The notes under the pieces: model-generated
Told to the model about the DNA's origin: nothing
The model's database searches: none
What the model saw: the letters and a program-made list of their open reading frames with translations, nothing else
Program-made: the position numbers and the translations under genes
In this document: positions 20,214-51,854 of the stretch, one piece after another
Position numbering within the stretch: position 1 is the stretch's first letter
Layout of the letters: every line of letters begins with the position of its first letter
IMG/VR virus record: IMGVR_UViG_3300049182_000044
Coordinates: 160,001 to 224,000 of that record
Reading direction: 5' to 3' (one strand)
Source: a virus
Lineage: Duplodnaviria > Caudoviricetes
DNA length: 64,000 bases

Positions 20214-20558
20214 TTAGCGTACCCCTCCTGGACCGTACTTTACGAACGTCCACGTCACGTCCGGAGCACAGTGACGCAGTAACTCGTGAGTCTTTCCCGG
20301 CTTCCAGTTCTTGATCGTCTCTTCCCAAATTTTCTTTCCATTCGGGATGGCGGGATCGTTCAAGATTGAAGTACTGCTCCAGGGAAAGTGTCCTCCAGGA
20401 ACTGAGGCGCTAACGCGCATCCCTGAAATAATGTCCTTACGCTTGCTGGAATCCCATTCAAAGTGAAGACGAAATTTCTTTCCGTCTTTCTTTTCGCCTT
20501 CCCATACTTCGGCAACGTTTGAAGAGTTCTCCACGCTTAAACTTATCTTGAGTTTCAT
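20214..20558 (-). CDS. Hypothetical protein with MKLKISLS N-terminal tag
   Basis: 114 aa directly downstream of major capsid gene. Confidence 0.65.
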   Translation of the reverse strand: MKLKISLSVENSSNVAEVWEGEKKDGKKFRLHFEWDSSKRKDIISGMRVSASVPGGHFPWSSTSILNDPAIPNGKKIWEETIKNWKPGKTHELLRHCAPDVTWTFVKYGPGGVR

Positions 20559-20610: not shown

Positions 20611-20687
20611 CAAGGGCGGAGCCCTGAGGCCCCACCCTTGAGGTATTGCGAAATAATGGGAGCGGGATTTGCCCGCCCCGCATTATT
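20611..20687 (-). terminator. Tandem stem-loops after major capsid gene
   Basis: Hairpins 20652-20687 and 20611-20640 (CAAGGG.GGGGC/GCTCCGCCCTTG). Confidence 0.7.
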
Positions 20688-22548: not shown

Positions 22549-22596
22549 GGTATCTTACTCCTTGATAGGGTATAAGTTGATTGACGAATACAGCTA

Positions 22597-29585: not shown

Positions 29586-30332
29586 TCAGAACTGTGAAGG
29601 GTTCAGCAGATGCGGACCGATCGCTGTGACGTAAGAGGGATTCGCAACGACGCTTGTCTCGAAGCCCACAATGTCGTGGCACTGGCGATAGGACAAACGG
29701 CCTTGCGGAGTTTGATACGTTGGACGACGCGGGTAGGTGTGTTCGCACGGCTTGCTGTTCATGCCTTGACCGACATGCGCGTTGCAGATCGAGCAAGTGT
29801 ACGACTTGAAGTAGAAGCCTACCGAGTATGCATTGTTGTCTTTCTTGAGAATCGAGTTGACCAGCAGTGGATCCTTCGTGCGGTCATAAGCCATCAGCTC
29901 GACCAGCTTGTAGTAACGACCGCCGCCGAAACGCTTGAGCGGACGCAGAAACACATCGAGGATCACGCCCTTGGCTTTCTCGATGATCTTGTTGTCGTGT
30001 TCCAGATGGCAGGGCTTGCCACGGAATGTCTTAAACGCCTGCATACCCATTTCAGGGTTGAATTGCATGAACTCTTGCAGGGTCACGCTATCACCATTGG
30101 TATTGGGAATTTCTGAAAACATTACCGGAACAGGAACGAGAACATAGTCGCGAATGTCGGTGGACAAATTGTACTTCTTCGCAGCCCAGGGCAACCATAA
30201 GTTTGCCTCAATAGTACCGCCTTCGCTCATACCCGCTTGCTTTGCAGCCTGCTCCGGATCTTTGTACATCTCTACGGCTGGCTCACCAAATCCAAAACAT
30301 TGGCTAATGAATTGCTCACTTACGTTTTTCAT
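29586..30332 (-). CDS. Prohead (capsid maturation) protease
   Basis: 248 aa; PNTNGD, HLEHD (His), KGVILD, YSVG (Ser), CSIC...CEH insert, FETSVVANP: HK97/U35-type fold pattern. Confidence 0.7.
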   Translation of the reverse strand: MKNVSEQFISQCFGFGEPAVEMYKDPEQAAKQAGMSEGGTIEANLWLPWAAKKYNLSTDIRDYVLVPVPVMFSEIPNTNGDSVTLQEFMQFNPEMGMQAFKTFRGKPCHLEHDNKIIEKAKGVILDVFLRPLKRFGGGRYYKLVELMAYDRTKDPLLVNSILKKDNNAYSVGFYFKSYTCSICNAHVGQGMNSKPCEHTYPRRPTYQTPQGRLSYRQCHDIVGFETSVVANPSYVTAIGPHLLNPSQF

Positions 30333-31281: not shown

Positions 31282-31287
31282 CTTATA

Positions 31288-31383: not shown

Positions 31384-31782
31384 TTATAGATCGATCTTGA
31401 TCTTGATCTTGTTCGAGGACATTGAAGGATGCGGACTAATCTTCATTGTCGGGAAATGTTCAATCGGCCTGAGACCGAAGTAGCGATTGTCTTCAGACGG
31501 AAGCTTGTGCTTTGCAGGGCCACTTCCAGAAGAAGGAGTACCGAAGGCTTTAGCACGTTTACGCTTCGTTTCTTTCTTCTTCGGTGAGGTCTCGATGTTG
31601 ATATTTTCGTCCTTTTCAGGAGGATTCAGCTGATCGTTTGTGCGCCTGAACTTAGGATTGTGCGTGATCGGGTTGTCACCGAAGTAATGAAAGTCACCAT
31701 TCGGCACCACATTCTTCAATGTCTCCAGATCGCTTTCAGGTCGTGCGTAACCAGCGAGTGAAATTCTGATCTTACTCTTCAT
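31384..31782 (-). CDS. Basic hypothetical protein with MKSKIRISLA tag
   Basis: 132 aa, ATGA overlap with upstream gene. Confidence 0.6.
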   Translation of the reverse strand: MKSKIRISLAGYARPESDLETLKNVVPNGDFHYFGDNPITHNPKFRRTNDQLNPPEKDENINIETSPKKKETKRKRAKAFGTPSSGSGPAKHKLPSEDNRYFGLRPIEHFPTMKISPHPSMSSNKIKIKIDL

Positions 31783-32375
31783 TTCTTTTTGCCCTGGAAC
31801 AGATCGACGAAATCCTTAACGTCGTCCTCACTCCAATCCTTGGAGAACAGGATCGTGTAGTAATCAGGTAACGTCAGGCGCTTGGGATCGAGCATTTGCT
31901 CGTACTGATCTTTCTTTCCCGAACTGCCGTCCTTTAACGACAAGTAGCGGTACTCCTTAATCAGACGTTGCAGCAACTGATTGGTGCCCTCGGAATGCCA
32001 GTCATCGGAAATCAAATTGATCCCGTTGTCCAACACCCAGCGATAGAGCGGAATGAACAGACCTCGACCACGATACTCTGGACGCATGAACAGCGTCGGG
32101 TGGTAGAACTTCGGCTTGATACCGGTGCGCATCGTCTTCGGATCGAGCAACATGAAACCAACGAACTTGTCGGTCTTGCTCTCCACTAGATAAACACGAT
32201 ATTTGCTCTTCGTGTGCTGCACCAGGATGTGCAACTCAGAAGTGTACCCAACAGCTCGCCAAACGCCTGTGCCCTGCTTATAGGCTTTCTCACCCAAATC
32301 GAGCAGTCCCAGAAAATCCTCGTCGAGATGGCTCATGTCTCGAATTTCTGCACTAAGGCTGATCTTTATTTTCAT
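31779..32375 (-). CDS. GNAT-family acetyltransferase with MKIKISLS tag
   Basis: 198 aa from ATG 32375 (GGAG); VGF, MRPEYRGRGL (acetyl-CoA motif A), LISD..HS.G. Confidence 0.75.
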   Translation of the reverse strand: MKIKISLSAEIRDMSHLDEDFLGLLDLGEKAYKQGTGVWRAVGYTSELHILVQHTKSKYRVYLVESKTDKFVGFMLLDPKTMRTGIKPKFYHPTLFMRPEYRGRGLFIPLYRWVLDNGINLISDDWHSEGTNQLLQRLIKEYRYLSLKDGSSGKKDQYEQMLDPKRLTLPDYYTILFSKDWSEDDVKDFVDLFQGKKK

Positions 32376-32386
32376 CACAAACTCCA

Positions 32387-32420
32387 ATAGGGGACGTCCC
32401 ATTTCTGAGGCGTCCCCTAT
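32387..32420 (-). terminator. Stem-loop after topoisomerase IB-like gene
   Basis: ATAGGGGACG/CGTCCCCTAT 10-bp stem. Confidence 0.6.
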
Positions 32421-32425
32421 CTAAA

Positions 32426-34105
32426 TTATCGGCGATCCTGCTTCTTCAGCAGCTTCGGAGAGCGCAGTCCAAGCTTGTCGATAAAGAACTCATTGATCAC
32501 TTCGGGGTCGATGTACGAACCAATCGAAGTGCTCGGCTGAGGCTTATCACCAGAGCGATGGTGCAGACGATTTGCAATGTCAATCACCTGCTCTTTGAAC
32601 CACTTCTCAACTTCAGTCTGCTTCGGCTGGTGAGACTTCTTGAAGGGCGACTTGGCGATAAACTCTTGAGCCATCTTCGTACCTTCAACCGCACGAAGGC
32701 TATGGACACGCATCGGAGTGCCTACGTTGCTCTTGAAGTATGTACGAGCTGCACCGTCACCGATTGGCTTACCTTCAATCGAGAATACCAGATCGTCCTC
32801 TCCCTTACCGTCGATCAGCTTCTGAACGATCTTCTGCACCTTCTTAGCTACTGTGCTGTTGATCTTGTACTGAGCGGACTGCGGTGTCAGTTTCTTACCG
32901 GTGTAATCGAACTGAATATAGCCAGACTTGACGGCCATGTGGCTCACGCGAATCGTAGACATGCCGTATGTCGGCTCGCCCTTGGTCGAATTGCCTTTAC
33001 CGCCGATACGGGACGAAGTAGCCCACAGAAGCTCGAACATTGCAGCTAGAGCTTGAGTACGGAACTTCTTCGAGTCCAGATCCTTCACCCACTTGGCGCG
33101 ATACGTGTCTTCCTTCTCGATGAAGTCTTTAACGTCGCTGAAACGAGCTTTCTTCTTGCCTTTCAGGAACTCAACCGTGCGATACGTCACACGATGGTCA
33201 GTACCCTTCGCAGCATAAGTGTTGTCAGAATCCGGATCGTACTTTGGGTTCATCGCCACTGTGCCATACGGCTGCTTCTCCAGCTCACGACCTTCAGCGG
33301 TGAAGTAAGTTTGTTCGGCGGTGACTTGAATACCTGGGAAGCCTTTGACGAGGTTGTGCGGGATGCCCTTCTTGTCCAGATGCTTCTTAACTTCTTCAAG
33401 ATCGACCATCTTCTTACCGGATGCCCGAACGAAGTTGGTGATTTCACGATCACGAATCGCCTTCAGCTTCTTGTTGAGCGGGGCTATCTGCTCCATCAGC
33501 TTTTTCTTCTTTGGATCAGCAGCCAGTTCAGCACGTTCATCGTTGTTCTGATAGAAGCAGGTATCACGACCCGTGAGCTGCTTCATCACCTTGCGGATTT
33601 CAGTGGTGAGCTTGCTCAGATCGCCAGTGACTTCCTTGCCCTTCTTGTCAACCACAGGCTTTGCGTGGTCTTCGTCGAGCGTGAACGCAGCATGCAGCTT
33701 CGTGCTTTCGAGCATACTCACAGCCTTGTGAATACGCTTCCACGAAGTCGGCTTCGCGTCACGAAGGTTTGCGCCAATGTCTTTAATCAGGTTGTAGTAC
33801 TCAAAGCTGATCTTGTTATCCTGATTGATCTTTGGCATCGCGTCTTTCATTGCATAGCCCAATTCATCAGCGTGGTCTTCGCTCAGATCACCTTTGACCA
33901 CGAACGAGTTCATAGCTTTGGTGAACTCTTTACCAAAGCCGAACTTCTTGGCGAATGCGGATGCTTCCGATGCCCAGCCTTTAACATCGGCTTTGAACGA
34001 ATCCGTCTTCTCACCGTTGAGGTCAAGCAGCATAACGAGCATGACCGAGGCGAATGCTTCTGCCTCAGGATGCTTTGCTGCTGCGAGTGCAATATTAAGT
34101 TTCAT
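32426..34105 (-). CDS. Type IB topoisomerase-like protein (long, divergent) with MKLNIALA tag
   Basis: 559 aa; SSRIG (R), TYG..T....H, FDYTGKK (K), HSLR (R), HH, SIGSYIDP (catalytic Y). Confidence 0.75.
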   Translation of the reverse strand: MKLNIALAAAKHPEAEAFASVMLVMLLDLNGEKTDSFKADVKGWASEASAFAKKFGFGKEFTKAMNSFVVKGDLSEDHADELGYAMKDAMPKINQDNKISFEYYNLIKDIGANLRDAKPTSWKRIHKAVSMLESTKLHAAFTLDEDHAKPVVDKKGKEVTGDLSKLTTEIRKVMKQLTGRDTCFYQNNDERAELAADPKKKKLMEQIAPLNKKLKAIRDREITNFVRASGKKMVDLEEVKKHLDKKGIPHNLVKGFPGIQVTAEQTYFTAEGRELEKQPYGTVAMNPKYDPDSDNTYAAKGTDHRVTYRTVEFLKGKKKARFSDVKDFIEKEDTYRAKWVKDLDSKKFRTQALAAMFELLWATSSRIGGKGNSTKGEPTYGMSTIRVSHMAVKSGYIQFDYTGKKLTPQSAQYKINSTVAKKVQKIVQKLIDGKGEDDLVFSIEGKPIGDGAARTYFKSNVGTPMRVHSLRAVEGTKMAQEFIAKSPFKKSHQPKQTEVEKWFKEQVIDIANRLHHRSGDKPQPSTSIGSYIDPEVINEFFIDKLGLRSPKLLKKQDRR

Positions 34106-34120
34106 TTTCTTTCCTGCTTC

Positions 34121-34909
34121 TTATCCAGTGATGTTTTCAGAAGATACCTGAATCGCATTAGAAGGAACTTGTCCGATGTAGAAATAACCAGCGGAACGGG
34201 CGGAACCCTGCATAAGGTCATTCTGCGTGAAGAACACATCGCCGTTCATGACCAGCTTCGAGGTCTCGAATTGCACGAGCGTATGACTAAGCAGGTCTGT
34301 CTTCGAGATCATCTGGTGATTTGCTCGGAACAGATGCTTGTGCAGATCAGCACGAGCTTCTTCCACAGTGAGATGCAGACGGTATGGCTTGTCATGCTCA
34401 ACTGCCGGAAGCCCTTCATGCAACATCGACGGCACCCATTCGTTAGGGGCCTCGAAGTAGAAGAACTCCGGAAGGAACTGATAAACCACAAAGTTCTGGT
34501 ACAGCTCTTTCTCAGCTGGGATCGTGCGCACTGAACCTTCGTTGTGAGTGTTCGTGTTCTTGCCCATCGGAACTTGCGGAACGCCAGACTCGTAAAATCG
34601 ACGCTCACGATAATGCGGCTCCAAACGAGACGGGGTGAACAGTGGTCCTTCAGGGTTCAGGAATTTCATGTACTCCTTAGGAACCTGCGTCCACACAATG
34701 TAGTCACCCCAGCGCTCTGCAAAGAATGTCTGCATCTCCTGGGTATCAGGAATTTGAAGGAAACCAAGGTAGTCAGCGAACTTAGATGAAGCGTACGGTT
34801 CGGTCATGCCCTTGATTTTCTGTAAGTCGATGTAGGAGATCAGCTTCTGAGCAATCTCAGGAGATAGTCCGAAGAACCCTACAGCCCGATCTATAATCGC
34901 CTGTAACAT
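34121..34909 (-). CDS. Hypothetical protein
   Basis: 262 aa ORF, no recognised motif. Confidence 0.65.
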   Translation of the reverse strand: MLQAIIDRAVGFFGLSPEIAQKLISYIDLQKIKGMTEPYASSKFADYLGFLQIPDTQEMQTFFAERWGDYIVWTQVPKEYMKFLNPEGPLFTPSRLEPHYRERRFYESGVPQVPMGKNTNTHNEGSVRTIPAEKELYQNFVVYQFLPEFFYFEAPNEWVPSMLHEGLPAVEHDKPYRLHLTVEEARADLHKHLFRANHQMISKTDLLSHTLVQFETSKLVMNGDVFFTQNDLMQGSARSAGYFYIGQVPSNAIQVSSENITG

Positions 34910-34923
34910 GGTTCGCCTTTCGA

Positions 34924-35187
34924 TTAGAGGTGACTGAAATCTTTCTTGGATGCTTGTTCGGCAACGTTATCCGCGATTTCGCGCATCTTGGCTTTGAAGG
35001 CCTTGTCGTCACCTTTAACCAGCATTTCAGCAACTTCGTTGCCAGTGTCACCGGCCAGTTCTTTCATCAGCAAGGAGAAGAATGCTTGACGCGGGGTGTG
35101 GTGCTTCTTGCCTTTGGATTCGGAGACCTGAACATCGCCTTTGATAGCGATAGGGCTAGTGCTGGAAGCAGTAACGATGGTTTTCAT
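34924..35187 (-). CDS. Small hypothetical protein
   Basis: 87 aa, AAGGA SD. Confidence 0.65.
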   Translation of the reverse strand: MKTIVTASSTSPIAIKGDVQVSESKGKKHHTPRQAFFSLLMKELAGDTGNEVAEMLVKGDDKAFKAKMREIADNVAEQASKKDFSHL

Positions 35188-35260
35188 GGAAATTCTTCCT
35201 TAACTGGATAGATTAGAGACGTAAGATGACACGCAAGACCTAGTTTTGCGTTATGTGGAT

Positions 35261-35270
35261 AAATTACGAT
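35261..35270 (-). promoter_or_regulatory. Putative late promoter motif ATCGTAATTT (copy 3)
   Basis: Exact repeat, intergenic after ligase terminator. Confidence 0.5.
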
Positions 35271-35337
35271 TTTTGAGTTTCGGCGAGGATGTTACGTGCC
35301 GATTTGACGCGCATTTCTGCGGTGTAGAAAGGTAAGG

Positions 35338-35371
35338 AAAGGGCGATACCCACTGAGGAATACCGCCCTTT
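35338..35371 (-). terminator. Intrinsic terminator after ligase
   Basis: AAAGGGCG..CGCCCTTT stem, 14 bp including GU pairs, pyrimidine-rich tail. Confidence 0.7.
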
Positions 35372-35374
35372 GGA

Positions 35375-37399
35375 TTACAGCTTTTCGATACGTTTAGCGA
35401 ACTCACCACGTTGCATGGTGGCCACGCCCATCTTCTTGGCTTTCTCAATCTTCGCAAAGCTCTTCTGCGGATCATTGAAGACCAAAAGTGATGTGTCCTT
35501 CTTGACGCCTTCACCCATGGTACCGCCCTGCTCTTCGACCTTGGCCGCCCACTCAGGATCACGGAAGCCGGTGAACACAATGGTCTGACCGGAAAACGCA
35601 TCACCCTTAGCTTTGGCCTTTTTCTTCTCTTCTGGCATCTTAGCTTCGATGCCCAGCTTGTCGTAGAATTCCTTGAAGGCGGGGAATCGTTCAGCAAACT
35701 GTTTCGACAAGACGTTGGAGAAGCCTTCGATACCCATAGCCATATCCGTCAACTGTTTCTGACTGTACTTGCCCGTCATAAGTTTCGGGAAAGCCTTGAC
35801 CAGCGGGACTAGGCGTTTCTCACCAAGACCTTGTCCGAACTTACCGCTAGCTTCCATGAGGGCCGGGAGCGTAGCGTTCTTCAAAGCCGCATCCATGTTG
35901 TCGCGCATCTTCGAGGCCGTCTTATCCTGAATCCCCTCGATTGCAAGGAACTTGGATTTCTTGGCCTTAGCGATCTTGAAGATGTTGTCCAGGCCAGCAT
36001 CATACAGCTTCTGAATCATGCCCTGCTTGACGCCATCAACACCGAGCTTCGTGAAGAAGTAGGTAATGCGTTTCACCTTGTTCAGGTCCGTCTTGACCGA
36101 TTGCTTGATCTCGACTTTGTTCTTACCGTAGGTGTATTCTACTTCGGGCATCTGCGGGGTCTTCGCTGCCTTCAGTACCTGAACGATGTGTGGGATAACG
36201 TCACCTGAACGGGTAATCAAGATCTTCGCACCGGGGCCAATTGGCATGACCGGCATTCCCTTAGTGCGATCCTTGTAGCGATAACCGTGTTCGATGAAGT
36301 ACGCATTGTGTCCGGTTGCGAACGTCACAGTCACACCCGCAAGACGCACAGGCTCAATCTCAACACGCGGCTTCAAAGTACCGTGGCGTGATTCTTCCCA
36401 CACCACTTGCTTGACCTTGACTTCTACGATGTCTTCAGCTGCCGTTTCCTTGTAGGCTACAGCGTGATCGGGATTCGAGCCTTCCGCGAGAGGAACCTTC
36501 TTATCCAGAACAACTACGAGGCCGTCAATTGCACGCTTCGTCTTCTTCTTGCGTACTTTCAGGATTTTGCTCAACTGCTCAGGAGTCAGATCCTTGTACA
36601 CCTTGTACGGCACTACGTTGAAGCCCAACTTCTTCAGCAGCTTCAACTGATCGCTGGGCTTGCCACGAGGTGTGAGGACTTCGTACACAACCACATGGAC
36701 GTCCTTGACTGCTGGGTGAACGTCTTTGCGATTGGCCATGCCGGCCACCATGTTGCGAGCGTTCTCGAAGCCTTCCTTCTTGCCCAGCTTCTCTGTTGAC
36801 CACTTTGCCTTGAAGGTAGCTTCAGGCATAATGATCTCGCCGCGAATGTCGATAGCGATCTTCAACGTCTGCGGAATGTCGAGATGCGGAACCAAGTGGG
36901 AAATATCCTGGCCCTTCATACCGTCACCGCGAGTAAATGCCTTGGCGACCTGTTTCGGCAAGTAGTTCAACTGAATCGAAACACCGTCTTCCTTGTTGGA
37001 GACAACGTAGGGTCCCTCGTGATCCATCAACCACTGAACTGCGGTAGCAGGCTTGATCTTATCGAGAGAGCCCATATAATGCTTGAGCTTGACCTTCGGT
37101 GCCTTGCCTTTGCCTGCCTGTACTGGGGCACCGATTTGCTTCAGCACCTTGGATTTCGGATTCAGGCGCTTCAGTTCCGCAGTGAGTTCGTCGAATGTTT
37201 CATCGTCGATCTTCATCCTCGTCTTAGGCATGTGGAACTCTGCGTCCAACAGCTTAAACAAAGCCGGATACTCTTTCGAGATATTGATGTTCAGGAACTT
37301 ACCTTTGTTGTAGTAAGAATCTGCAGCCTGAGTCATCAACTCTTCTAACTGTTTGATAGCCTTGCCTGACGAGGACAGGCTTATCATTATTTTAGCCAC
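35375..37399 (-). CDS. ligA: NAD+-dependent DNA ligase (BRCT, no Zn finger)
   Basis: 674 aa from GTG 37399 (AAGGA); KEDG, TRGDG, IRGE, RNMVAG, IDGLVV, AYK, RSGDVIP, C-terminal BRCT (VFTG..GG..KDTSLLV); starts MAKIMISLS. Confidence 0.95.
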   Translation of the reverse strand: MAKIMISLSSSGKAIKQLEELMTQAADSYYNKGKFLNINISKEYPALFKLLDAEFHMPKTRMKIDDETFDELTAELKRLNPKSKVLKQIGAPVQAGKGKAPKVKLKHYMGSLDKIKPATAVQWLMDHEGPYVVSNKEDGVSIQLNYLPKQVAKAFTRGDGMKGQDISHLVPHLDIPQTLKIAIDIRGEIIMPEATFKAKWSTEKLGKKEGFENARNMVAGMANRKDVHPAVKDVHVVVYEVLTPRGKPSDQLKLLKKLGFNVVPYKVYKDLTPEQLSKILKVRKKKTKRAIDGLVVVLDKKVPLAEGSNPDHAVAYKETAAEDIVEVKVKQVVWEESRHGTLKPRVEIEPVRLAGVTVTFATGHNAYFIEHGYRYKDRTKGMPVMPIGPGAKILITRSGDVIPHIVQVLKAAKTPQMPEVEYTYGKNKVEIKQSVKTDLNKVKRITYFFTKLGVDGVKQGMIQKLYDAGLDNIFKIAKAKKSKFLAIEGIQDKTASKMRDNMDAALKNATLPALMEASGKFGQGLGEKRLVPLVKAFPKLMTGKYSQKQLTDMAMGIEGFSNVLSKQFAERFPAFKEFYDKLGIEAKMPEEKKKAKAKGDAFSGQTIVFTGFRDPEWAAKVEEQGGTMGEGVKKDTSLLVFNDPQKSFAKIEKAKKMGVATMQRGEFAKRIEKL

Positions 37400-37452
37400 T
37401 GGCTTTTTCCTTCGTTCTAGCACGATTATTCCTTTATAGGGACATTTGTACT

Positions 37453-37461
37453 TATTTACAG
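37453..37461 (-). promoter_or_regulatory. Putative late promoter variant CTGTAAATA
   Basis: Same 9-mer at 51844 and 61368, all intergenic; resembles T4 late TATAAATA. Confidence 0.45.
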
Positions 37462-37947
37462 TTACGGGTCGAGTTCCTGAATGGCTTGTTCACCGAACGT
37501 CAGCACGATGGGCTTGCCGCCTAGTGCACCATTGAGGACCTCCAGAGCCGCATAAGCGTCTTCAGTACTAACATCTTTCTTAACCGTGATGTGCGGACGA
37601 TACTCTGGGAAGTCAACGGTGTAGCCCAATTCACGCCAGTCTGCATGAAGCTTCTGAAGACCTGGGCTATCCAGTAGGCACACAAGATACGGCTTGCCGT
37701 TGTGACCATCCCATTTAACGAACTCTGAGATACGGGCGACGTACACGTTCTTGCTCTTCGCCTCGCCAGTTGCTTTGTTCAAGTTCTTGGAGTAGAGGAC
37801 GGTGCAGTGCAGATCGTCGTAGTTCGGTTCGAGGAAGTCAACGAGCTTGAACAGCTCTACCAACTTGTCGTGCGACAGTCCAAGAGGATAGACTGCCGCG
37901 TAAGTGCCATTCTCGAATCCAGCAGATAGACTGATTTGAATTTTCAC
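37462..37947 (-). CDS. acb1: Acb1-like 2H phosphoesterase (anti-CBASS candidate), copy 1, with MKIQISLS tag
   Basis: 161 aa; GTYAA, LHCTVLYS, LVCLLDS..L..LH....LG..DF..YRPHITV match the T4 gp57B/Acb1 pattern. Confidence 0.8.
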   Translation of the reverse strand: MKIQISLSAGFENGTYAAVYPLGLSHDKLVELFKLVDFLEPNYDDLHCTVLYSKNLNKATGEAKSKNVYVARISEFVKWDGHNGKPYLVCLLDSPGLQKLHADWRELGYTVDFPEYRPHITVKKDVSTEDAYAALEVLNGALGGKPIVLTFGEQAIQELDP

Positions 37948-38141
37948 GATTTTCCTTTCTTGACCACGGTCTTCGTTTTCTTCTTCGGATCGAAGCCGAG
38001 CATACGTCGAACATCCTTAGGTGTACGCTCCAGCTCTTCGTCATCAGGATCATCATCAGTGAACTTCGTCCAGTCCACTGGCTTGCCACCCACCTTACCA
38101 AAGTGAGCATTCGGCAAATGTTTCTTCAGGTTGCTTGGCAT
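37944..38141 (-). CDS. Small hypothetical protein
   Basis: 65 aa, DDPDDEEL..TP.DV..MLGFDP; GTGA overlap with next gene. Confidence 0.65.
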   Translation of the reverse strand: MPSNLKKHLPNAHFGKVGGKPVDWTKFTDDDPDDEELERTPKDVRRMLGFDPKKKTKTVVKKGKS

Positions 38142-38150
38142 GATAGACCT

Positions 38151-38618
38151 TTACGTGCGATGAATGCTGTGAATGACAGCGTTCAGCCATTTAGGCATCG
38201 ACTGATGCAGAGCATGAATTTTTGGGATGCTGTCGAGCACCGGCCGGAAGTAAGCCGTGTCCGTCTTTTCTTCCGTATAGGAGACGCCACCATTCGGGCC
38301 AATGACTTGTGCGTTCAGGAGCGGAGCCGGTGACAGTTCCTCGTACTTCATTTTCGCCACGTTACGGAAGCCAAACAGGAGTTCAACTGTCCAGTCTGCA
38401 TCGACTGTGTGACGATACACCCAGACCTTACCTTCTTTGGTTTCCTGAGGGTAGACCTGATCACCACGATTCGAGTCTTTAGCGATCTTGCGAAGAGTCT
38501 CACGCAACGTCATAATCATTTCTTGCTGCTCTTGCGTGGTACGCAGACGGGCACCGGCCTCAGCACCAGCAGAAGGTTTCGGTGGACGGGTAGCACTCAG
38601 GCTTACTTTGATCTTCAT
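38151..38618 (-). CDS. Hypothetical protein with MKIKVSLS tag
   Basis: 155 aa from ATG 38618 (GGAG, ATGA overlap). Confidence 0.65.
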   Translation of the reverse strand: MKIKVSLSATRPPKPSAGAEAGARLRTTQEQQEMIMTLRETLRKIAKDSNRGDQVYPQETKEGKVWVYRHTVDADWTVELLFGFRNVAKMKYEELSPAPLLNAQVIGPNGGVSYTEEKTDTAYFRPVLDSIPKIHALHQSMPKWLNAVIHSIHRT

Positions 38619-39577
38619 GGCATTCTCCACTCTGCAAATACAGCTGGACTGATGTAGCTTTGCAGAGCAATTGTTGGGGTGTTACCGAGCTTGGCAGCAA
38701 CCTTCTTGGCCACCGCGAGCACCATCTTGCGGTACTCTTTCTCGTTCGCCGGTTTCTTTTCGGACTTACGCACTTCGTCCAGTGCGGTGGCGGTACCCAA
38801 ATGAGTCCGGAAGTCCTTGGTCTTGAAATGCCCACCATCGAGTGTATGGGTATAATCAAGCAACTTCTTCTCGTTCAAATTCGGGAACAGCTTTCCGTCC
38901 GGGCCGGCTTCCTTGGCACGACGTTTCAGCATGTTGATCGCATCTTTGTCATCGACCTCGATATTGAGATCAACACCCTTCTTGCCAGTGAAGCGCAGGA
39001 AGACCTTGCCGTCCTCGATCACAACATGCTCGCCTTTCAGATTGGAAGCGCCGTATGCTTTCTTTTCAGCACCGGTGTCTGCGTCTGATCCTGGACGAAG
39101 GCCGGTCTTCATAATCAGCATCATGCAATCAGCACAGTCCTTCTTACGCGGAGTCTTAGAACGTCGTGCCTTCTCGTTCTGTTCGTGAATCGCATCGAAC
39201 TCTTCAGCGAGTGCTTGTACACGAAGGAACTTGGCTTCAGCCTGAGTCTTCATGAAGGCATCCGAATAGATCGGTTGCAGACGTCCTTTTGCATCACGCC
39301 CGGTAACGAGCAGGTCAGCATTCGGATCGGGATTGATACGCACATCACTCCAGCCGGGTGGAATGCCCAGCTTCTGGATGTGCTCAGGCAGCGGAGAACC
39401 ATCTGCCATCACGCGCTTCCCATCCACGACTTGCGTTTCATGTTCAGGACGAGCTGCGCGACGGCTCTTAGCGTACTTGGAGTTAGGATGTTCCGTAACG
39501 TACTTATCCTGCTCTTCTTTGGTCAACTCCTCAAACCAATTCTCGTTTTCTTTTGAAAGTGCGATTTGGATTTTCAT
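38615..39577 (-). CDS. DNA topoisomerase IB (bacterial/poxviral type) with MKIQIALS tag
   Basis: 320 aa; IPPGWSDV.I, GRDAKGR.Q.IY, GLRPG, FTGKKG, KDFRT, LGNT....QSYI: full catalytic pentad. Confidence 0.93.
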   Translation of the reverse strand: MKIQIALSKENENWFEELTKEEQDKYVTEHPNSKYAKSRRAARPEHETQVVDGKRVMADGSPLPEHIQKLGIPPGWSDVRINPDPNADLLVTGRDAKGRLQPIYSDAFMKTQAEAKFLRVQALAEEFDAIHEQNEKARRSKTPRKKDCADCMMLIMKTGLRPGSDADTGAEKKAYGASNLKGEHVVIEDGKVFLRFTGKKGVDLNIEVDDKDAINMLKRRAKEAGPDGKLFPNLNEKKLLDYTHTLDGGHFKTKDFRTHLGTATALDEVRKSEKKPANEKEYRKMVLAVAKKVAAKLGNTPTIALQSYISPAVFAEWRMP

Positions 39578-40128
39578 AATTCGTATTCTTGTAAGCTCAA
39601 AACTCTAACGACCTCAATAGGGCTTTCAGAATAAGCGATAACTTCCTTCTGACCTAGGTAGGCATTAGCCATCTCGTCTAGTTTAGCAACCATACGATTA
39701 CCCGGCAATCGTTTTTTAACAAACGGAAGCACGCGCTTTACTACCCAGCTACCATTCACGACTTCATGCACACGGTCTTCGACCTTCATAACGTAGCAGC
39801 ATTCATAGCCATCAAGAGCACCTATCGAATCCGCTAAGTCTCTCCAGAATGCTTTTCCCGTACCGAACGTAAAACTCAAAACACGATTCGACTCAAGCGT
39901 CATCTTTTCAGGAAGAGGTGTATAGGAACCTATTACTCGGTACAGAGGCTTGTCAATCGGCACGTATGGAACGCTGTCAACTAGTGGCTTGAGGATTTTC
40001 TGCACTTCCACAGGATGTCTATAGCGCTCGTCTAGTCTGTATGACCCTTCAAAGAAGGAAGACAGCCAATCGCAAGCTCTATCTAAAGCGATATCTTGTG
40101 AGGAACTTAAACTGATTTTGATCTTCAT
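39574..40128 (-). CDS. ADP-ribosyltransferase-like protein with MKIKISLS tag
   Basis: 184 aa; LYR, SFT, QKEV in R-S-E order. Confidence 0.5.
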   Translation of the reverse strand: MKIKISLSSSQDIALDRACDWLSSFFEGSYRLDERYRHPVEVQKILKPLVDSVPYVPIDKPLYRVIGSYTPLPEKMTLESNRVLSFTFGTGKAFWRDLADSIGALDGYECCYVMKVEDRVHEVVNGSWVVKRVLPFVKKRLPGNRMVAKLDEMANAYLGQKEVIAYSESPIEVVRVLSLQEYEL

Positions 40129-41265
40129 TTAGAAACCCTGTTTTGCTATCAATTCTTCTTTGCCGAAACTTGTGTAGTAGTCGGTAGCCGACATCCACAC
40201 TTCCTTTTCCTGCGCTTGCGTTGTCTTGATCTTGAACGTGTCCACCAGCTTCGAGAAGTCCAAAACGAAATCAGCTGGTCGCAGTTCTTTCTTGAATACC
40301 GCAATCGCCTCACCGGACTCCAAGTCCTTCACCGCGTTCAACGCAATGTGTGGATCAAGAGAATACGGAAGTTGTTTGCCTTTGCGTCCATCGAAGCCAT
40401 TCACGCGACCTTTGAGGCGACCTGACCGATCAAACTTCTTCAAGTCCTCTTCGGTCATAATGACAGCGCGATAGATACTCTTAACCCTGGGTGGTGAGCG
40501 GAACTTGTCTGCCAGTTCGTGCTTGGTAATCCTCGTCATCGAGGCGGTAACGTCACCGAACATATCGAGATACGTCTGCACATCGGATTCAAAGTTCTCG
40601 TCGAAGTCGGGAACCAAGGTTGCTGCCACCGCGTCCATCGGCACCTTGTACTTTGCAAACAGCTTGTGCAAGTAATCGTCCTGAGCTTTCGTTAAGGTCT
40701 TACCTTTGCTCAACTGTTCGCCAATGTTCTTCACGAACTTGGTATCGTAGTCATTGAACTTTGTATGGTGCATCTTCCACAGGAAGCGTGTTCGTGGGTA
40801 CAACGTCTTCGGGTCTTTCGAGACGTATGCCTGCTCCTTCGTGTATGGAACGTGTTCTTTGACAGGCATCGCATACCGATACTTCGCTGCGTTCTCAAAC
40901 TCAGCTGGCTCGATGTGGATGGTCTTCAACGTGCGTCCTGTACCTGCAAGGCGTTGCTCGATTTCCGGCAGCTTGTGATACGGGCTAGTGACGAACACCA
41001 ACACGTTACCCAAACGCAGACGACGCAGTTTCTCCGGTTGCCAATCCCAGCCTACAAAAGACTGTTTCGACAAGTAAGCAATGTCTCCGCCGTTATCGCT
41101 ATCTCGTTCCTGATGCGGGACAAGGATGTACGAATCAGATGGGTAATCAATGCCCCAAGCGACGGGTACCTTGAATACGTGAATCAGACGCTCCTTCTCA
41201 GGTACCCAATAGAAGAAGTCCGGCTTATTCTGTGGCGCAGAAGCTAGCGCAACTTTGATTTTCAT
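40129..41265 (-). CDS. Two-domain protein, C-terminal ADP-ribosyltransferase-like, with MKIKVALA tag
   Basis: 378 aa from ATG 41265 (GGAG, ATGA overlap); IYR, YSLD..IA, QEKEV (E-x-E). Confidence 0.5.
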   Translation of the reverse strand: MKIKVALASAPQNKPDFFYWVPEKERLIHVFKVPVAWGIDYPSDSYILVPHQERDSDNGGDIAYLSKQSFVGWDWQPEKLRRLRLGNVLVFVTSPYHKLPEIEQRLAGTGRTLKTIHIEPAEFENAAKYRYAMPVKEHVPYTKEQAYVSKDPKTLYPRTRFLWKMHHTKFNDYDTKFVKNIGEQLSKGKTLTKAQDDYLHKLFAKYKVPMDAVAATLVPDFDENFESDVQTYLDMFGDVTASMTRITKHELADKFRSPPRVKSIYRAVIMTEEDLKKFDRSGRLKGRVNGFDGRKGKQLPYSLDPHIALNAVKDLESGEAIAVFKKELRPADFVLDFSKLVDTFKIKTTQAQEKEVWMSATDYYTSFGKEELIAKQGF

Positions 41266-41759
41266 GGTGTTCTCCAAAGAGGCCCTGGGATGAAATGTCC
41301 CGATTGAGCTATTACACCGTTGCTCAAATGACCTTCTAGTTCTTTGCCGATGTCTTGTACTTTGTAGGGTGGGAAGAACAGGTGAACCAACACCTCAACG
41401 TCACCACGTACTGCACGAATAGCCTTTACACGATTGAGCCCTTCGTAATCTCGGACCTTTGCATCGTCCCAGATCGGCTTCATTTCGTTGCTCTTCAGTT
41501 CAATGTCGATCCAAGGGCTCGCAATGGCGTCACCCTTTTCAATACTCTCACGATAGAACTCTTCAGTGAGCGTCTCCTTGTTATCGACAGGGAGAACCAG
41601 TTCGATGAAAGTATTGGCCTTCATCAGCACGGTCAGACCAACCGCAGCTTCCTTATTGCGTTGGGTCGTACCGTAGCCAGCTTCCTGATCGTAGCGAATG
41701 CCATACACGAAGGCTTCTTTCGACAACGAGGTAGAGAATAATGGAATTTTGATCTTCAT
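41262..41759 (-). CDS. ParB/Srx-like protein, paralogue A (MKIKIPLF..SLS tag variant)
   Basis: 165 aa; IASPW..IEL, EGLNRVKA (GxxRxxA). Confidence 0.45.
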   Translation of the reverse strand: MKIKIPLFSTSLSKEAFVYGIRYDQEAGYGTTQRNKEAAVGLTVLMKANTFIELVLPVDNKETLTEEFYRESIEKGDAIASPWIDIELKSNEMKPIWDDAKVRDYEGLNRVKAIRAVRGDVEVLVHLFFPPYKVQDIGKELEGHLSNGVIAQSGHFIPGPLWRTP

Positions 41760-41761
41760 GA

Positions 41762-42310
41762 TTATTGCCAGAGTGGACCACGAACGAAACGACCATGTTG
41801 CCCTTTGATGCCTTTACGCAGCCCTTCGATCATTCCTTCTGTGAGGTGTTTGTTATTGTCCAAATTACTGAAAGTGATGTGAACAAGCACGGGAACACCG
41901 CCGTGAATATCGGATATGGCTTTCATGCGATTGCGTCCTTCGTGCCCCGAAATGTAGGCGCCGTCCACAACCTTGTCACGGCCGTCTTCACCCAGTTCAA
42001 TGCGCAGCCATGGACTTGCGATTGCACCACCGTTTTGAATATGCTCTTTGATGTGCGTCAAATTAGTTGCCTCTGCGCTACCGATCAACAGAGGGTAGCA
42101 CAAATCAAGGAACGTACTCGGAGCCATCAACACCGAGAAACCCTTATGCCCCACTTCCTGATTGTGCGGTATGGCACCGAGACCTTTTACTTGATCGTAC
42201 TGGATACCGTGCAGCTCGTGGCGCAGAGCACGGTTCAGAACTTCAGCCATAGTTAGGAAACGGCCTTGACCGGGCTTCGTATCAGAGGAGAGGGCGATTT
42301 TGAGTTTCAT
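41762..42310 (-). CDS. ParB/Srx-like protein, paralogue B (MKLKIALS tag)
   Basis: 182 aa; IASPW..IEL, HEGRNRMKA, ends GPLW like paralogue A. Confidence 0.45.
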   Translation of the reverse strand: MKLKIALSSDTKPGQGRFLTMAEVLNRALRHELHGIQYDQVKGLGAIPHNQEVGHKGFSVLMAPSTFLDLCYPLLIGSAEATNLTHIKEHIQNGGAIASPWLRIELGEDGRDKVVDGAYISGHEGRNRMKAISDIHGGVPVLVHITFSNLDNNKHLTEGMIEGLRKGIKGQHGRFVRGPLWQ

Positions 42311-42326
42311 GATGTTCTAATGGGAA

Positions 42327-42350
42327 TGGGTGACCCCGAAGAGCCACCCA
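42327..42350 (-). terminator. Stem-loop with cUUCGg tetraloop
   Basis: TGGGTGGCTC TTCG GGGTCACCCA on minus strand. Confidence 0.7.
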
Positions 42351-42356
42351 AGTTTC

Positions 42357-42731
42357 TTAATTGCCGGACTGCGCATCCTTGGCGTCTGCCTTCATCATAA
42401 CGGCGTCTGCTTTGTGCTTGTCTTTGAATGCAGTCAGTGTACTGAGTGCATCATGCCACACGTTCGAACCTGCAGACCCCAACAGACCTACGATCAGGAT
42501 CGACTGGAGGAACGGCAAGTCCTTCAGGAAGATGATTGTGTCAGGAGGATTCAGTACAGCAGCGAGCGCTGAAGTGGCGAACGTGATGCCTTGCAGAACA
42601 GCGACACGTACTTTTTCGTTTTGCAGCTTGTTCAGATCAACAACTGCTTTGATGGACGCGGTAATGCGTTCAGCAACAGCTGCGATCAGACCGAGATACA
42701 CAACGATTTCAGTGATAGACGATTCAAACAT
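42357..42731 (-). CDS. Putative holin-like membrane protein
   Basis: 124 aa, three hydrophobic helices, GLLGSAGSNVWHD motif, charged C-terminus. Confidence 0.45.
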   Translation of the reverse strand: MFESSITEIVVYLGLIAAVAERITASIKAVVDLNKLQNEKVRVAVLQGITFATSALAAVLNPPDTIIFLKDLPFLQSILIVGLLGSAGSNVWHDALSTLTAFKDKHKADAVMMKADAKDAQSGN

Positions 42732-42771
42732 AGTTACCTCTCAAGTTATGCTCAACTAGAGCAATTCGTTA

Positions 42772-43017
42772 CTACTTAGGACGGTATCCTTGCTCGTCTT
42801 CATCATCGTACCACGCGACGATCTCTCCATTTGCGGCGTTGCGAATGATGTTCAGAGGAGGATCTTTAACGTCGTTCTTCACATGGATGTGCAAACGTGT
42901 CTTCACATACTCAATAAAATCAAGAAGGTCTTCACCATGAGTATTGGGTGGATGACGATCCATGAAATCGTCAATGTCATCTTCACGTTTGCCGGAGAGT
43001 GCGATTCTGAGCTTCAT
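42772..43017 (-). CDS. Small acidic protein with MKLRIALS tag
   Basis: 81 aa. Confidence 0.65.
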   Translation of the reverse strand: MKLRIALSGKREDDIDDFMDRHPPNTHGEDLLDFIEYVKTRLHIHVKNDVKDPPLNIIRNAANGEIVAWYDDEDEQGYRPK

Positions 43018-43032
43018 AAAAATCTCTGCTGA

Positions 43033-44079
43033 TTAAATGTCCAACTTGACCTTACCTACGATCACGTTAGGATGGAATAGCGCCATCGAGTTGCCAGTCG
43101 GCCCTTCGACAACGTACATGCTGTCATAGCTAAGATCGACCAGATAGTCTCTCAGCCTTTCTACAAACTCAACTCGCGGCACTCCGGTATGCGGCCAAGT
43201 AAGAGCCGGATCATTGATCGTCGGCAGCTTCAAGTCCGGATTGCTTTCACGAATGACGTTGTAATCCTCTTTGCACTGAGGCTTGCGCAAATCGAAGATG
43301 TGGCGAGGGTTGACCGTAAGTTGATGGATAGGAATACCCATCTTCTTCGCCATCATCTTGGCTTTCGCAGTTTCAAGATCGTCAGTGACGACCAAGAAGT
43401 TGCTGCGACGCAATTCAGCAGCCGGGTCATAGCTGACGCAGTACACTGGAGTGCTGCTCATACTGCGATATGACTTCGGGATCGGCAAATCCAACCAGCT
43501 GAGGTCCTCGTCGATCTCCAGCTCATCAGGCGTAATCAACTTGCCGCCATGCAGGACATGTCCGGCTGGCACGGGGTCTTCATCCTCAATTGTCGGACGT
43601 ACCTGCACCTTGACCTTTGAGGGCTTGGTAGTCTTCTTCAGTTCCTTCTCTTTCTTCACCGCCAGCTTCTTCGATTCAACGTCAGGCTGTACCGGCTTAG
43701 AAGGCTTCGCAGGCTTTTTCGGTTTGGTCAGATCGACCTTGATCTTCGTCGGCTTAGTAGCTTTTACCGGATCACCTAGATCGGACTGCTTGATCTTGCC
43801 CTTGTATTCCTTCGACCGATCCATGATCTTATCTGAACGAGGAATGTCGACCTTGAAGATCACATTAGGCATCTTCAAAACCAAGTAACGATCTTGGGTA
43901 CGTGTAGCTTCTTTCACGCCATACAAGTCACCCTTGCTGAGCTTGACCGATCGTCCTCGTTCATCGACGAGCTTAACGCCTTTGTCACCCGTGTACTTGT
44001 GCCAGGTGTAATCCTTTACTTTGAAGTGCTTGCCCGTTGCAGCAAGCGCTACCCCTTCTACGAGTGTTCGAGTCAACAT
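43033..44079 (-). CDS. Lys/Pro-rich protein with degenerate ART-PolyVal-like C-terminus
   Basis: 348 aa; C-terminal VY...VTDD...A...L.V.P..IFDL...SYDSM......ALFHPN.I pattern. Confidence 0.4.
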   Translation of the reverse strand: MLTRTLVEGVALAATGKHFKVKDYTWHKYTGDKGVKLVDERGRSVKLSKGDLYGVKEATRTQDRYLVLKMPNVIFKVDIPRSDKIMDRSKEYKGKIKQSDLGDPVKATKPTKIKVDLTKPKKPAKPSKPVQPDVESKKLAVKKEKELKKTTKPSKVKVQVRPTIEDEDPVPAGHVLHGGKLITPDELEIDEDLSWLDLPIPKSYRSMSSTPVYCVSYDPAAELRRSNFLVVTDDLETAKAKMMAKKMGIPIHQLTVNPRHIFDLRKPQCKEDYNVIRESNPDLKLPTINDPALTWPHTGVPRVEFVERLRDYLVDLSYDSMYVVEGPTGNSMALFHPNVIVGKVKLDI

Positions 44080-44735: not shown

Positions 44736-46607
44736 TTAAACGTGTACCGTCTTCGGCTTCTTGTTGAAATCGCCACGAACATGGGCGGCTTTCATTGCAC
44801 GGACGATGTTGAGGTTGATCTTCTCGTTAGCTGCCTTCTGATTGCGAACGTATTTGGGCTTGCCAGTCTTCGACGATGCCTTCACTTCACCGGCTTCACC
44901 GAACTTACGGCTCAACAGAGGAACCTTACCTCCACGCGCATGAACAGCCGAACGTGTCTTGCCAGAAGGAGCATCCGAAGCCAACGCAACGAGGGCGCTT
45001 GCTGTAGCTTCTTCGTCGCCCTCTTCCGCAGCGCGCGGGTTGATCGCCTCCAGCTTATCCAGGTAGTCCTTGATCTTCTTGCGTGTTTCAATGTCATCAT
45101 CCTGCTGGCGCAGCAAATCGTCGATGTTCAACCCACCTGCAGCTGCCATAACACGCAGCGGGACTGGGACACCCTTCTCGGTCATGCTGTTGAGCATTTC
45201 GAGATACGCCGAATCGCCCTCAGGCTTCAACTGTTTTGCCCAGTGAATCGTCGGGATCAGCAACTTCGAGCCGTCATTCAGCCTGAACATTGCGTCTTCC
45301 GGAGTCATCTCACTCATCAAGTTTTCGCGAATGGAGACCTTGCCCTTCGATGTAAGCGTGTAGCCATTCAGCATCGAAATAAGCGGGAACAGCTTATCGT
45401 AGAAGAGCTTGCGCGTCAGCATTTCACGATAGGCACGCATTTGTTCGATGAAGACCGTCAGCGATGTGTCTGCTGTGTTGTAGTTGGCATCGCCACTGAG
45501 GAAGCCTTCCGAAATTCCCAACGCACGAAGCTTGTGCGCGAGGACAGAATCCGCGAAATCGCCGTGCTTCCAAAACTCACCGCCTTGGCGAAGTTCCTCG
45601 ACCGACACGCCCAGACGAGTTGCAATGATCGCTCCCAGCGGGTCGCTATCGGCGTTCATGAACAGGTCTGTAATGAATTCCAAGTCCTGTACAGTCGGTG
45701 TCCACTCCTCGCCGTCGCCCAGAGAGATATGCATGATGCCCCGTTGACGGCGAGCCGATTCGATCAGCGTGCCACGGAACAAGTTCTTTTCGATCAAGTA
45801 GATAGGGAGAATACGGCGGAAGTACGACGTACCGGAATCCGTTGTCGAGAACGTCTTACGCGGGATGTACATCGTGGACAGCGGATCGAGTTCAAGCGTA
45901 CCTGAAGTAATCTTCTCGATCACGGTCTTGCCGATCTGTTCCCGAATACGCTTCATGCGAGGCGTATCGCGTTTGAGCAGTTCCTGCACTTGCTCATTGA
46001 ACTTGACAGTAATGAAAGGGTCTTGCGAATAGAAAGGAAGGTTCTCGAAGGTCAAGTTCTCGATAGCATGAGGCATGATATCCGTGAACAGCTTCTTCTC
46101 TTTGTTGTACAGCAAAGACGAGGTATGCGCACCGAGTACCAGATAATCAACACTGATTTCCGGCAACAGGGTACGCAATGACAGACGTTCGAGCGTCTCT
46201 GCGAAAGTGTTTGCAATCTTTGGATCGCTAATACCACCCAGGGTGAATTCACTGAACGGCAAGGATGAGATAAGATCAACGGCCGATCCAGCTACGGGAT
46301 CGTGGTAGTACATGTCTCGATACAGGCGATGAAAATACGCTTGTTCAATCTGAGGCGTGATGCCCGTCAGCATCGGATCGAGATCGATGCTGATCGGGTT
46401 GTTCGACATGCTGGTGTTCTGCATACCGTTGACAGGGCCGGAGCTCAAGCTCGTGAACGGCGCTGCACCGCCTTGCTCTTCACTCTTGGTCTTTCTCACT
46501 GCGCGTGAGTTTGTGCCTAGCGACGTGTTACGTGCTGGCTTGTCTGAAGTGCCTACAGCGGGCCTCAGACCAAAGGCCACATTAGCACTCTTCTTAACCG
46601 TAATCAT
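44736..46607 (-). CDS. Portal protein
   Basis: 623 aa downstream of terminase; YYHDPVAGSAVDL, GTSY.RR.LP.Y..EK, F.EQM..YR. Confidence 0.8.
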   Translation of the reverse strand: MITVKKSANVAFGLRPAVGTSDKPARNTSLGTNSRAVRKTKSEEQGGAAPFTSLSSGPVNGMQNTSMSNNPISIDLDPMLTGITPQIEQAYFHRLYRDMYYHDPVAGSAVDLISSLPFSEFTLGGISDPKIANTFAETLERLSLRTLLPEISVDYLVLGAHTSSLLYNKEKKLFTDIMPHAIENLTFENLPFYSQDPFITVKFNEQVQELLKRDTPRMKRIREQIGKTVIEKITSGTLELDPLSTMYIPRKTFSTTDSGTSYFRRILPIYLIEKNLFRGTLIESARRQRGIMHISLGDGEEWTPTVQDLEFITDLFMNADSDPLGAIIATRLGVSVEELRQGGEFWKHGDFADSVLAHKLRALGISEGFLSGDANYNTADTSLTVFIEQMRAYREMLTRKLFYDKLFPLISMLNGYTLTSKGKVSIRENLMSEMTPEDAMFRLNDGSKLLIPTIHWAKQLKPEGDSAYLEMLNSMTEKGVPVPLRVMAAAGGLNIDDLLRQQDDDIETRKKIKDYLDKLEAINPRAAEEGDEEATASALVALASDAPSGKTRSAVHARGGKVPLLSRKFGEAGEVKASSKTGKPKYVRNQKAANEKINLNIVRAMKAAHVRGDFNKKPKTVHV

Positions 46608-51840: not shown

Positions 51841-51854
51841 GTCTATTTACAGTA

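Follow-up and report, generated by a model that had tools for sequence, protein, structure and literature searches.

Short N-terminal peptides that direct proteins into a phage head are known from T4, whose internal proteins (IPs) carry capsid-targeting sequences (CTSs) of 10–19 residues; these are sufficient for the packaging of foreign proteins, and diverse proteins with CTS-like N-termini occur in related phages (PMC9026906). Similarly, the phiKZ-like giants (phiKZ, 201phi2-1, and SPN3US) are jumbo phages with a gp21-related protease, in which many proteins are packaged together with the DNA and N-terminal propeptides may target the prohead (PMC10052503, PMC13282480). The analysis reported here concerns a 64,000-nt stretch of viral DNA (the window), corresponding to bases 160001–224000 of one 281,566-bp contig (IMGVR_UViG_3300049182_000044), in which a gene cluster placed between the portal and the prohead protease encodes mostly unrelated proteins that begin with variants of one eight-residue peptide, hereafter called the tag. 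Taking sequence, genomic context, and the analogy with T4 into account, it was considered moderately probable that the tag is a CTS-like signal targeting its carriers to the capsid.

The source phage is, judging from the 42–64% identity of its portal, capsid, and protease, a jumbo phage akin to the Pseudomonas phages PaBG and Lu11, to phage NCTB, and to the "hairy" myoviruses of Dickeya and Erwinia. The PaBG/Lu11 group received the name "Lupandier" in the PaBG paper (PMC7412058). The portal-to-protease cluster gave zero matches by megablast against the phage collection, and a search of the available literature for the tag peptide strings and for capsid-targeting signals of jumbo phages retrieved no description of the tag.

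An initial annotation of this stretch had listed 13 starts sharing the N-terminal peptide. All of them were found on the minus strand, each encoding M-K-[ILS]-[KQNRM]-[IV]-[SAP]-L-[SAF] as first residues, and their consensus comprised eight residues, M-K-(I/L)-x-(I/V)-(S/A)-L-(S/A). Two of the 13 (37399 and 37947) presented GTG as start codon. The stop–start overlaps by which the starts had been judged were also observed, and at five starts a 4-nt overlap or a direct abutment with the upstream gene supported the assignment. Homology and predicted fold confirmed that the cluster is flanked by the portal and the prohead protease. The cluster genes, with overlapping stops and starts, share the strand of the head genes, and these features are given below from the portal to the capsid module.

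44736..46607, minus strand: portal gene, the upstream boundary of the cluster (by tblastn, 53% identical to the annotated PaBG portal, with 87% of the query covered; 95 jumbo-phage records matched).
43033..44079, minus strand: protein with a KMPT-N domain (Pfam, 2.2e-08), whose tag, ..EGVALAATGK, is degenerate and lies slightly inside the N-terminus.
42772..43017, minus strand: tagged open reading frame (ORF) of 81 aa, MKLRIALSG, with no family assigned by profile search and zero homologues among the relatives checked.
41762..42310, minus strand: tagged ORF of 182 aa, MKLKIALSS, ParB_N-like as a lead (Atlas feature score of 0.94 to ParB_N clusters).
41262..41759, minus strand: tagged ORF of 165 aa, MKIKIPLF..SLS, paralogue of 41762–42310 (39% identity, E 5e-30).
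40129..41265, minus strand: tagged ORF of 378 aa, MKIKVALAS, whose C-terminal part is ADP-ribosyltransferase (ART)-like as a weak lead (Atlas ART families, low template modelling (TM) scores of 0.33–0.36).
39574..40128, minus strand: tagged ORF of 184 aa, MKIKISLSS, ART-like as a lead (Atlas structure rows Mod_ADP_RT, ART, and ADPrib_exo_Tox, TM 0.47–0.54; feature row Arr-ms, 0.90).
38615..39577, minus strand: tagged type IB topoisomerase (TopIB) of 320 aa, MKIQIALSK (Pfam Topoisom_I 2.3e-25, Top1B_N_bact 5e-09).
38151..38618, minus strand: tagged ORF of 155 aa, MKIKVSLSA, with no family from Pfam or PHROG searches.
37462..37947, minus strand: tagged Acb1-like 2H phosphodiesterase (anti-CBASS family) of 161 aa, GTG start, (M)KIQISLSA (Pfam Acb1 1.3e-19).
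35375..37399, minus strand: tagged NAD-dependent DNA ligase (LigA) of 674 aa, GTG start, (M)AKIMISLSS (Pfam DNA_ligase_aden, OB, and BRCT).
32426..34105, minus strand: tagged TopIB-like protein of 559 aa, MKLNIALAA (Pfam Topoisom_I 2.5e-14).
31779..32375, minus strand: tagged ORF of 198 aa, MKIKISLSA, with weak acetyltransferase similarity (phrog_1249, E 5.8e-4).
31384..31782, minus strand: tagged ORF of 132 aa, MKSKIRISLA, whose orthologue in the related contig L131 begins MKLKIALSG.
29586..30332, minus strand: predicted prohead protease with the T4 gp21 (assemblin) fold, the downstream boundary of the cluster (phrog_18299, head-maturation protease, 1.5e-87).
20686..21804, minus strand: major capsid protein, HK97-like, 372 aa (62–64% identity to the Lu11 and 59–60% to the PaBG capsid genes).
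20214..20558, minus strand: tagged ORF of 114 aa, MKLKISLSV, the immediate downstream neighbour of the capsid gene; a tagged 120-aa ORF (MKVYLAIAA) is also present in the Lu11 head module.

The recurrence of the tag was far beyond chance. In a six-frame translation of the window, the motif was found at 13 N-termini together with 2 chance matches, while 50 shuffled versions yielded 0.72 matches on average and at most 3. When the whole genome was inspected with a regular expression, a check that the initial annotation had suggested, the strict N-terminal pattern matched 17 genes among 7,699 candidate starts, with 41262–41759 (MKIKIPLF) falling outside it. Of the tagged genes, 12 lie in the portal-to-protease cluster, 1 is the neighbour of the capsid gene, and 5 belong to a second cluster (genome 34.8–47 kb), and the strict pattern gave zero matches elsewhere in the genome. 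Since the strict matches end at the two clusters and the capsid neighbour, no replication or tail gene is tagged, in agreement with what had been claimed for the window. The tagged proteins were otherwise unrelated, as also stated initially: once the first 12 residues were cut off, similarity was left in only 2 pairs among the 18, namely the two TopIB proteins and 41262–41759 with 41762–42310, so that the set represents about 16 unrelated families.

As to the enzyme labels proposed in the initial annotation, TopIB (twice), LigA, and Acb1 were recovered by Pfam profiles, whereas the GNAT label found just a weak PHROG match and the ART-like labels just an Atlas lead. For example, the Acb1 profile PF23474 matched ORF 37462–37947 with 70.8 bits (cut-off 27), which by profile places this ORF in the Acb1 family. 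Residues 13–130 corresponded to profile positions 1–116; the tag thus precedes a complete domain and constitutes an added module. Another Acb1/2H-phosphoesterase paralogue, which is untagged, lies at 24798–25355 (minus strand), between the protease and the capsid module, and Pfam Acb1 is matched by its homologues in the related contigs L131 and L132; of the two Acb1 copies in the genome, one is thus tagged and the other untagged.

The conserved entity proved to be the peptide, because the Ser (AGT/AGC/TCA/TCC/TCT) and Leu (TTA/CTC/CTT/CTG/CTA) codons differ among the tagged genes. These codons are drawn from both families of each amino acid, in support of the initial claim that selection acts on the peptide and not on the DNA. 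The same data bear on the idea that the shared start reflects translation, as a ramp for initiation or early elongation, or the duplication of a mobile gene cassette together with its 5′ end. Translational coupling matters in this region, given that many starts overlap the stop of the preceding gene, and both a Lys codon (AAA/AAG) at position 2 and A/T-rich codons 2–5 favour expression. However, S-L-S (residues 6–8) is kept across the AGY/TCN and TTA/CTN codon families, and this mixture rules out RNA-level selection and recent DNA copying for these residues. The DNA upstream of the tagged starts showed no conservation, and the tag is missing from head genes with high expression, the capsid gene among them. 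Moreover, the tags are uniform within each phage and different between phages, though ribosomes are conserved, and an origin in translation or cassette copying was thus considered very improbable.

The regular-expression check was extended to relatives, in which the same type of tag was found with a genome-specific consensus and swapped cargo. In Lu11, at least 14 almost consecutive genes downstream of the portal begin with MKIQLAVA or close variants, a TopIB-like gene included, and one more is found in the head module. The NCTB tags (MKIVSISA, MKIISISA, MLISLSAA, etc.; [IV]SIS) sit by the protease and capsid genes and not by the portal, the PaBG set is looser (MLIKINLLEA, MAAIKINLAEA, MQIKVAMYSAEA, and others), and Dickeya phage JA29 presented degenerate candidates only (MLFFVSVSA, ..KSISAS). 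Among closer IMG/VR and metagenome contigs, with proteases 66–80% identical, ISLS was found in L044, L131, and L132, while L045 presented the dialect IS[LM][AS], position 4 being aromatic, and L051 the dialect ISIS. Tag identity was 0.55 within genomes versus 0.38 between them, a difference reached in 0 of 5,000 label shuffles. Such concerted evolution within genomes implies one common phage-encoded reader or receptor.

The cargo carrying the tag varied as well. The ligase begins AKIMISLS here, TKIMISLS in L132, SKIQVSLS in L044, and KLLISLAS in L045, and the Lu11 and PaBG ligases are untagged. Most metagenomic orthologues of the TopIB-like protein (32426..34105) have the local tag, followed by a short acidic linker and then a conserved helix, and a few orthologues lack the tag and begin right at this helix. 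Similarly, in the Lu11 gp208 family the segment ..VLYHIT.. follows LAVAG in Lu11 and SLSAT in L132, and the KMPT-N family starts with MIISLAAAA in Lu11, MLISLSAA in NCTB, and MLFFVSVSA in JA29. The portal, protease, and capsid genes are 57–86% identical in the closer relatives and 42–64% in Lu11 and PaBG, and for 8 of the 13 tagged genes no homologue was detected among the relatives examined. Taken together, these comparisons depict the tag as a detachable module that has been gained and lost by a fast-changing gene set and is read by one phage-encoded partner. In the Ralstonia phage RSL1 (L155:22991-25255, 3′ of the head-tail connector gene), three small ORFs begin with MTYNISAATKRL, MAYDITAAVSRL, and MISISAALLRL, which may be another tag dialect in a distant Mieseafarmvirus lineage or simply paralogues.

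A common reader is required by the concerted evolution of the tags, which does not say which reader it is. In this sense, the tag might instead target another phage-built assembly, such as a replication or DNA compartment, a membrane-bound assembly site, the tail lumen, or the tail "hairs", by way of a common phage-encoded adaptor. Several cargo proteins act on DNA (TopIB, LigA, ParB_N-like), and the group is known for its hairy tails (PMC6143709). The location of the tagged genes points elsewhere. The second cluster, with its 5 strict-tag genes and looser variants that include a NUDIX protein, adjoins homologues of PaBG gp194 and gp198 and is directly upstream of the gp202 homologue; PaBG gp195, in the gp194–gp198 block, is annotated as a head-to-tail joining protein, and by these neighbours the second cluster lies in a virion module. 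Both clusters are thus in virion modules and none is in replication modules, and the replication proteins of the genome are all untagged, though a replication-compartment signal should mark them. Furthermore, DNA- or NAD-acting enzymes have no plausible role on the tail exterior. A destination of this kind was therefore considered unlikely.

Regarding the preferred capsid-targeting interpretation, the protease next to the cluster is of the expected type. An AlphaFold2 model built with 44 homologues reached a pLDDT of 81, and its comparison with T4 gp21 (5jbl_B) gave Z 9.4 and a root-mean-square deviation of 2.4 Å over 124 residues, the next unrelated rows scoring about 6 and herpesvirus proteases Z 5–6.5. 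Positions H112 and S170 were invariant across the 44 homologues, of 223 found. In the model, ORF 29586–30332 is thus predicted to have the T4 gp21/herpesvirus assemblin fold with conserved His and Ser. The protease gave no Pfam match, the PDB sequence search returned empty, and Foldseek alone was weak (E ~0.1). A complex prediction of the protease (44-row alignment) with residues 1–40 of the tagged 31779–32375 protein scored 0.11, against a mark of 0.32, and weighs in neither direction.

The principle of such an address is known from T4. The T4 gene order is 20-67-68-21-22-23, and the interval between portal (20) and protease (21) encodes the prohead core proteins 67 and 68; the corresponding interval holds the tagged cluster here. 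The tag resembles the CTSs of IPI, IPII, IPIII, and Alt in being a short N-terminal peptide on unrelated proteins (about 10 residues in T4 and about 8–10 here), and in both cases the cargo includes ART-type (leads here) and anti-defence proteins. In sequence, the CTS of T4 IPIII appears to differ from the consensus observed here, which alternates hydrophobic and small residues after Lys2. The two systems also differ in the number of carriers (about 18 per genome here versus 3–4 plus Alt in T4), in their nature (large enzymes such as TopIB, the 674-aa LigA, and Acb1 versus small basic proteins), and in the fact that no conserved (L/I)-x-E site closes the tag in this genome; moreover, the present system belongs to the PaBG/Lu11 lineage, with an HK97-like capsid protein, and its packaging function is putative. 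In both, the carrier genes are variable between related phages and lie in or near the head module, with a gp21-fold protease alongside (PMC9026906).

Unlike the common octapeptide found here, the propeptides of the phiKZ-like phages are mostly long (111–254 residues), protein-specific, and end in A/S/G-x-E, and a shared short cargo motif has not been described there. Outside phages, the cargo-loading peptides of encapsulins are short, conserved within a system, found on diverse enzymes, transferable, and bind the inner face of an HK97-fold shell. The likeness lies in a short conserved peptide appended to diverse enzymes, and binding of the tag to the capsid would be hypothetical here; encapsulin peptides are usually C-terminal, with another motif, and their cargo is not injected into another cell. 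Poxviruses package a TopIB in their particles so that it is available at once for the incoming genome, but they are eukaryotic viruses without a shared N-terminal tag, and the analogy extends only to a reason to pre-package this enzyme. Compared with T4, the present system differs in lineage and motif, in how many and which proteins carry the tag (large enzymes acting on DNA or NAD, together with an anti-CBASS nuclease), in apparently lacking a cleavage site of its own, and in having dialects specific to each genome.

The processing of the tag is the part of the initial proposal that found no support. A modular peptide signal on unrelated proteins, its restriction to virion-module genes, and an adjacent gp21-fold protease were all supported, but not the cleavage at SLS/ALS, since Glu is the residue after which proteases of the gp21 type cut (PMC9026906, PMC10052503) and no enrichment of a Glu motif was observed behind the tag. 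In residues 6–22, a small/hydrophobic-x-Glu motif was present in 8 of the 18 tagged proteins here, compared with a fraction of 0.42 of untagged controls, and in 4 of 15 in Lu11, and a tag ending in a Glu cleavage site was rejected given this lack of enrichment in either genome. PaBG alone was enriched for the motif (x-E-A, a gp21/phiKZ-type site) by residue 12, with 5 of 9 against 0.16 of controls. The tag may therefore stay on most of the cargo or be removed in some phages only, and its removal, if any, would proceed by a cut after a downstream Glu in a subset of the cargo. In SPN3US, about 80% of the head proteins are uncleaved, and the cleavage site is A-x-E (PMC10052503).

The Glu residues that often follow the PaBG tags, together with the gp21 fold of the adjacent protease, could also be accommodated by a stability or latency signal, that is, a degron or a chaperone/protease recognition motif keeping toxic enzymes short-lived or inactive in the producing cell, whether packaged or not. 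Toxicity is plausible for many of the tagged enzymes (topoisomerases, ARTs, nucleases). Nevertheless, an eight-residue peptide is unlikely to inhibit ~16 different folds, conserved host proteases would not produce phage-specific tag variants, and the Glu motif is enriched neither here nor in Lu11. This explanation also leaves the restriction to head modules unaccounted for, and it was considered slightly less probable still than the unlikely targeting of another phage assembly.

In the capsid-targeting scheme, the tag would dock unrelated, late-made proteins during prohead assembly on one common phage-encoded receptor inside the head, for which the scaffold or core, the inner capsid surface, the portal, or the protease would be candidates. 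To our knowledge, the CTS receptor has still not been identified, even in T4. The docked proteins would be enclosed with the DNA and then delivered to the next host cell, packaging and ejection being inferred steps. This cargo would constitute a fast-changing toolkit composed of two TopIB enzymes, LigA, the Acb1 anti-CBASS nuclease, and ART-like, ParB_N-like, NUDIX, and GNAT-like proteins. From its alternating hydrophobic/small pattern alone, the tag may act as the β-strand "zip code" suggested in the initial annotation. The one experimental observation within the group, an indirect one, concerns PaBG, in which gp83 begins with MLIKINLLEA and is encoded between the TopIB-like gene and the capsid module. 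This protein was among the 14 identified when bands of purified virions visible by Coomassie staining were analysed (PMC7412058, Table 1).

Several observations weigh against capsid targeting. The PaBG data point is statistically weak, as it represents 1 of about 9 tag-like proteins among 14 bands, and for the phage described here the capsid role would rest on sequence and context. Five untagged genes are scattered within the cluster. The homologue of the PaBG virion protein gp202 (genome 50058–55832) has no clear tag, so virion proteins do not all use it; the giant PaBG gp202 itself begins ..TLNSLSAA. The Glu motif is not enriched here or in Lu11, and the T4 order of events, in which targeting precedes cleavage, thus finds no counterpart. 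Finally, the LALSS segment of the capsid protein gives no clue to the receptor. Residues ~30–39 of this protein (SLALSSSTGE) are tag-like and include a Glu site, and L-A-L-S-S-S-T-G-E-[FIV]-N-A is nearly invariant across the group. The segment was considered as a model site mimicked by the tags and rejected, since Lu11 has SLALSSATGE yet LAVA tags and there is no co-variation between the two. For the PaBG capsid protein, a mass loss of ~20% on maturation was reported.

Other proteins of the head module were noted in the same context. The two proteins flanking the capsid gene, 22597–24618 and 19019–19570 (minus strand), present very long Asp/Glu-rich low-complexity stretches. In the 673-aa Asp/Glu-rich protein, two CxxC pairs resemble zinc ribbons; this protein is conserved in both Lu11 and PaBG (gp82), yet it is absent from the PaBG virion bands. 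These Asp/Glu-rich proteins are scaffold candidates and possible receptors of the tag.

Regarding expression, two signals were located within the cluster.

37453..37462, minus strand: promoter-like motif ACTGTAAATA, upstream of the ligase gene, matching the core of the annotated middle/late promoter of Lu11.
35338..35371, minus strand: terminator-like hairpin with a 14-bp stem and a T-rich tail, directly after the ligase gene.

The sequence (A)CTGTAAATA was found at 10 sites genome-wide, each in the local direction of transcription, and those in the window were 37453–37462, 51844–51853, and 61368–61377, all on the minus strand. Most of the sites are non-coding and lie ~45–70 nt 5′ of a likely start codon, as judged by eye, with 2 sites unclear. 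It constitutes the core of a 16-nt "putative middle/late promoter" annotated in Lu11, and it resembles the T4 late promoter TATAAATA. Late expression of the tagged genes can be inferred from this Lu11-type middle/late motif. The hairpin divides the cargo genes into two or more transcription units.

If capsid targeting were true, widespread environmental, plant- and Pseudomonas-associated jumbo phages would pre-load fast-changing enzymes that act as the DNA enters the cell, widening the injected repertoire beyond the T4 internal proteins, the N4 virion RNA polymerase (vRNAP), and the phiKZ inner body. A simple sequence rule would then read the injected proteome from genomes and metagenomes, and the tag dialects would open a way to the CTS receptor and might supply short, mutually orthogonal tags with which to load proteins into phage heads. 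In a bolder and rather doubtful version, the tag would be an uncleaved eight-residue address that co-evolves with a head-internal receptor and loads ~5% of the proteome (topology and repair enzymes, ADP-ribosyltransferases, and an anti-CBASS nuclease) for co-injection; this would be the largest such tag-addressed toolkit known in a phage, with the dialects ISLS, ISIS, and LAVA as naturally orthogonal loading codes. If packaging were disproved, the tag would remain an unexplained sorting signal on ~18 proteins per genome.

Additional features of the region were observed. Plus-strand ORFs of up to 671 aa, including 20638–22575, run antisense over the capsid and scaffold-like genes; these long ORFs are composition artefacts that mislead naive longest-ORF gene calling. 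The greedy ORF set behind some of the BLAST tables omits genes under such ORFs, for example the capsid gene, and absences in those tables were re-checked by tblastn. Moreover, a 349-aa ORF is placed between the cluster and the protease (30316–31365, minus strand) and contains repeats of a treble-clef zinc-finger motif (DUF4379). Its sole homologue, with 49% identity, was found in the complete relative G001, and the ORF has the appearance of an insertion of the homing-endonuclease type. The second cluster encodes a protein resembling it (DUF7487/TnsA-like; genome 45173–45982).

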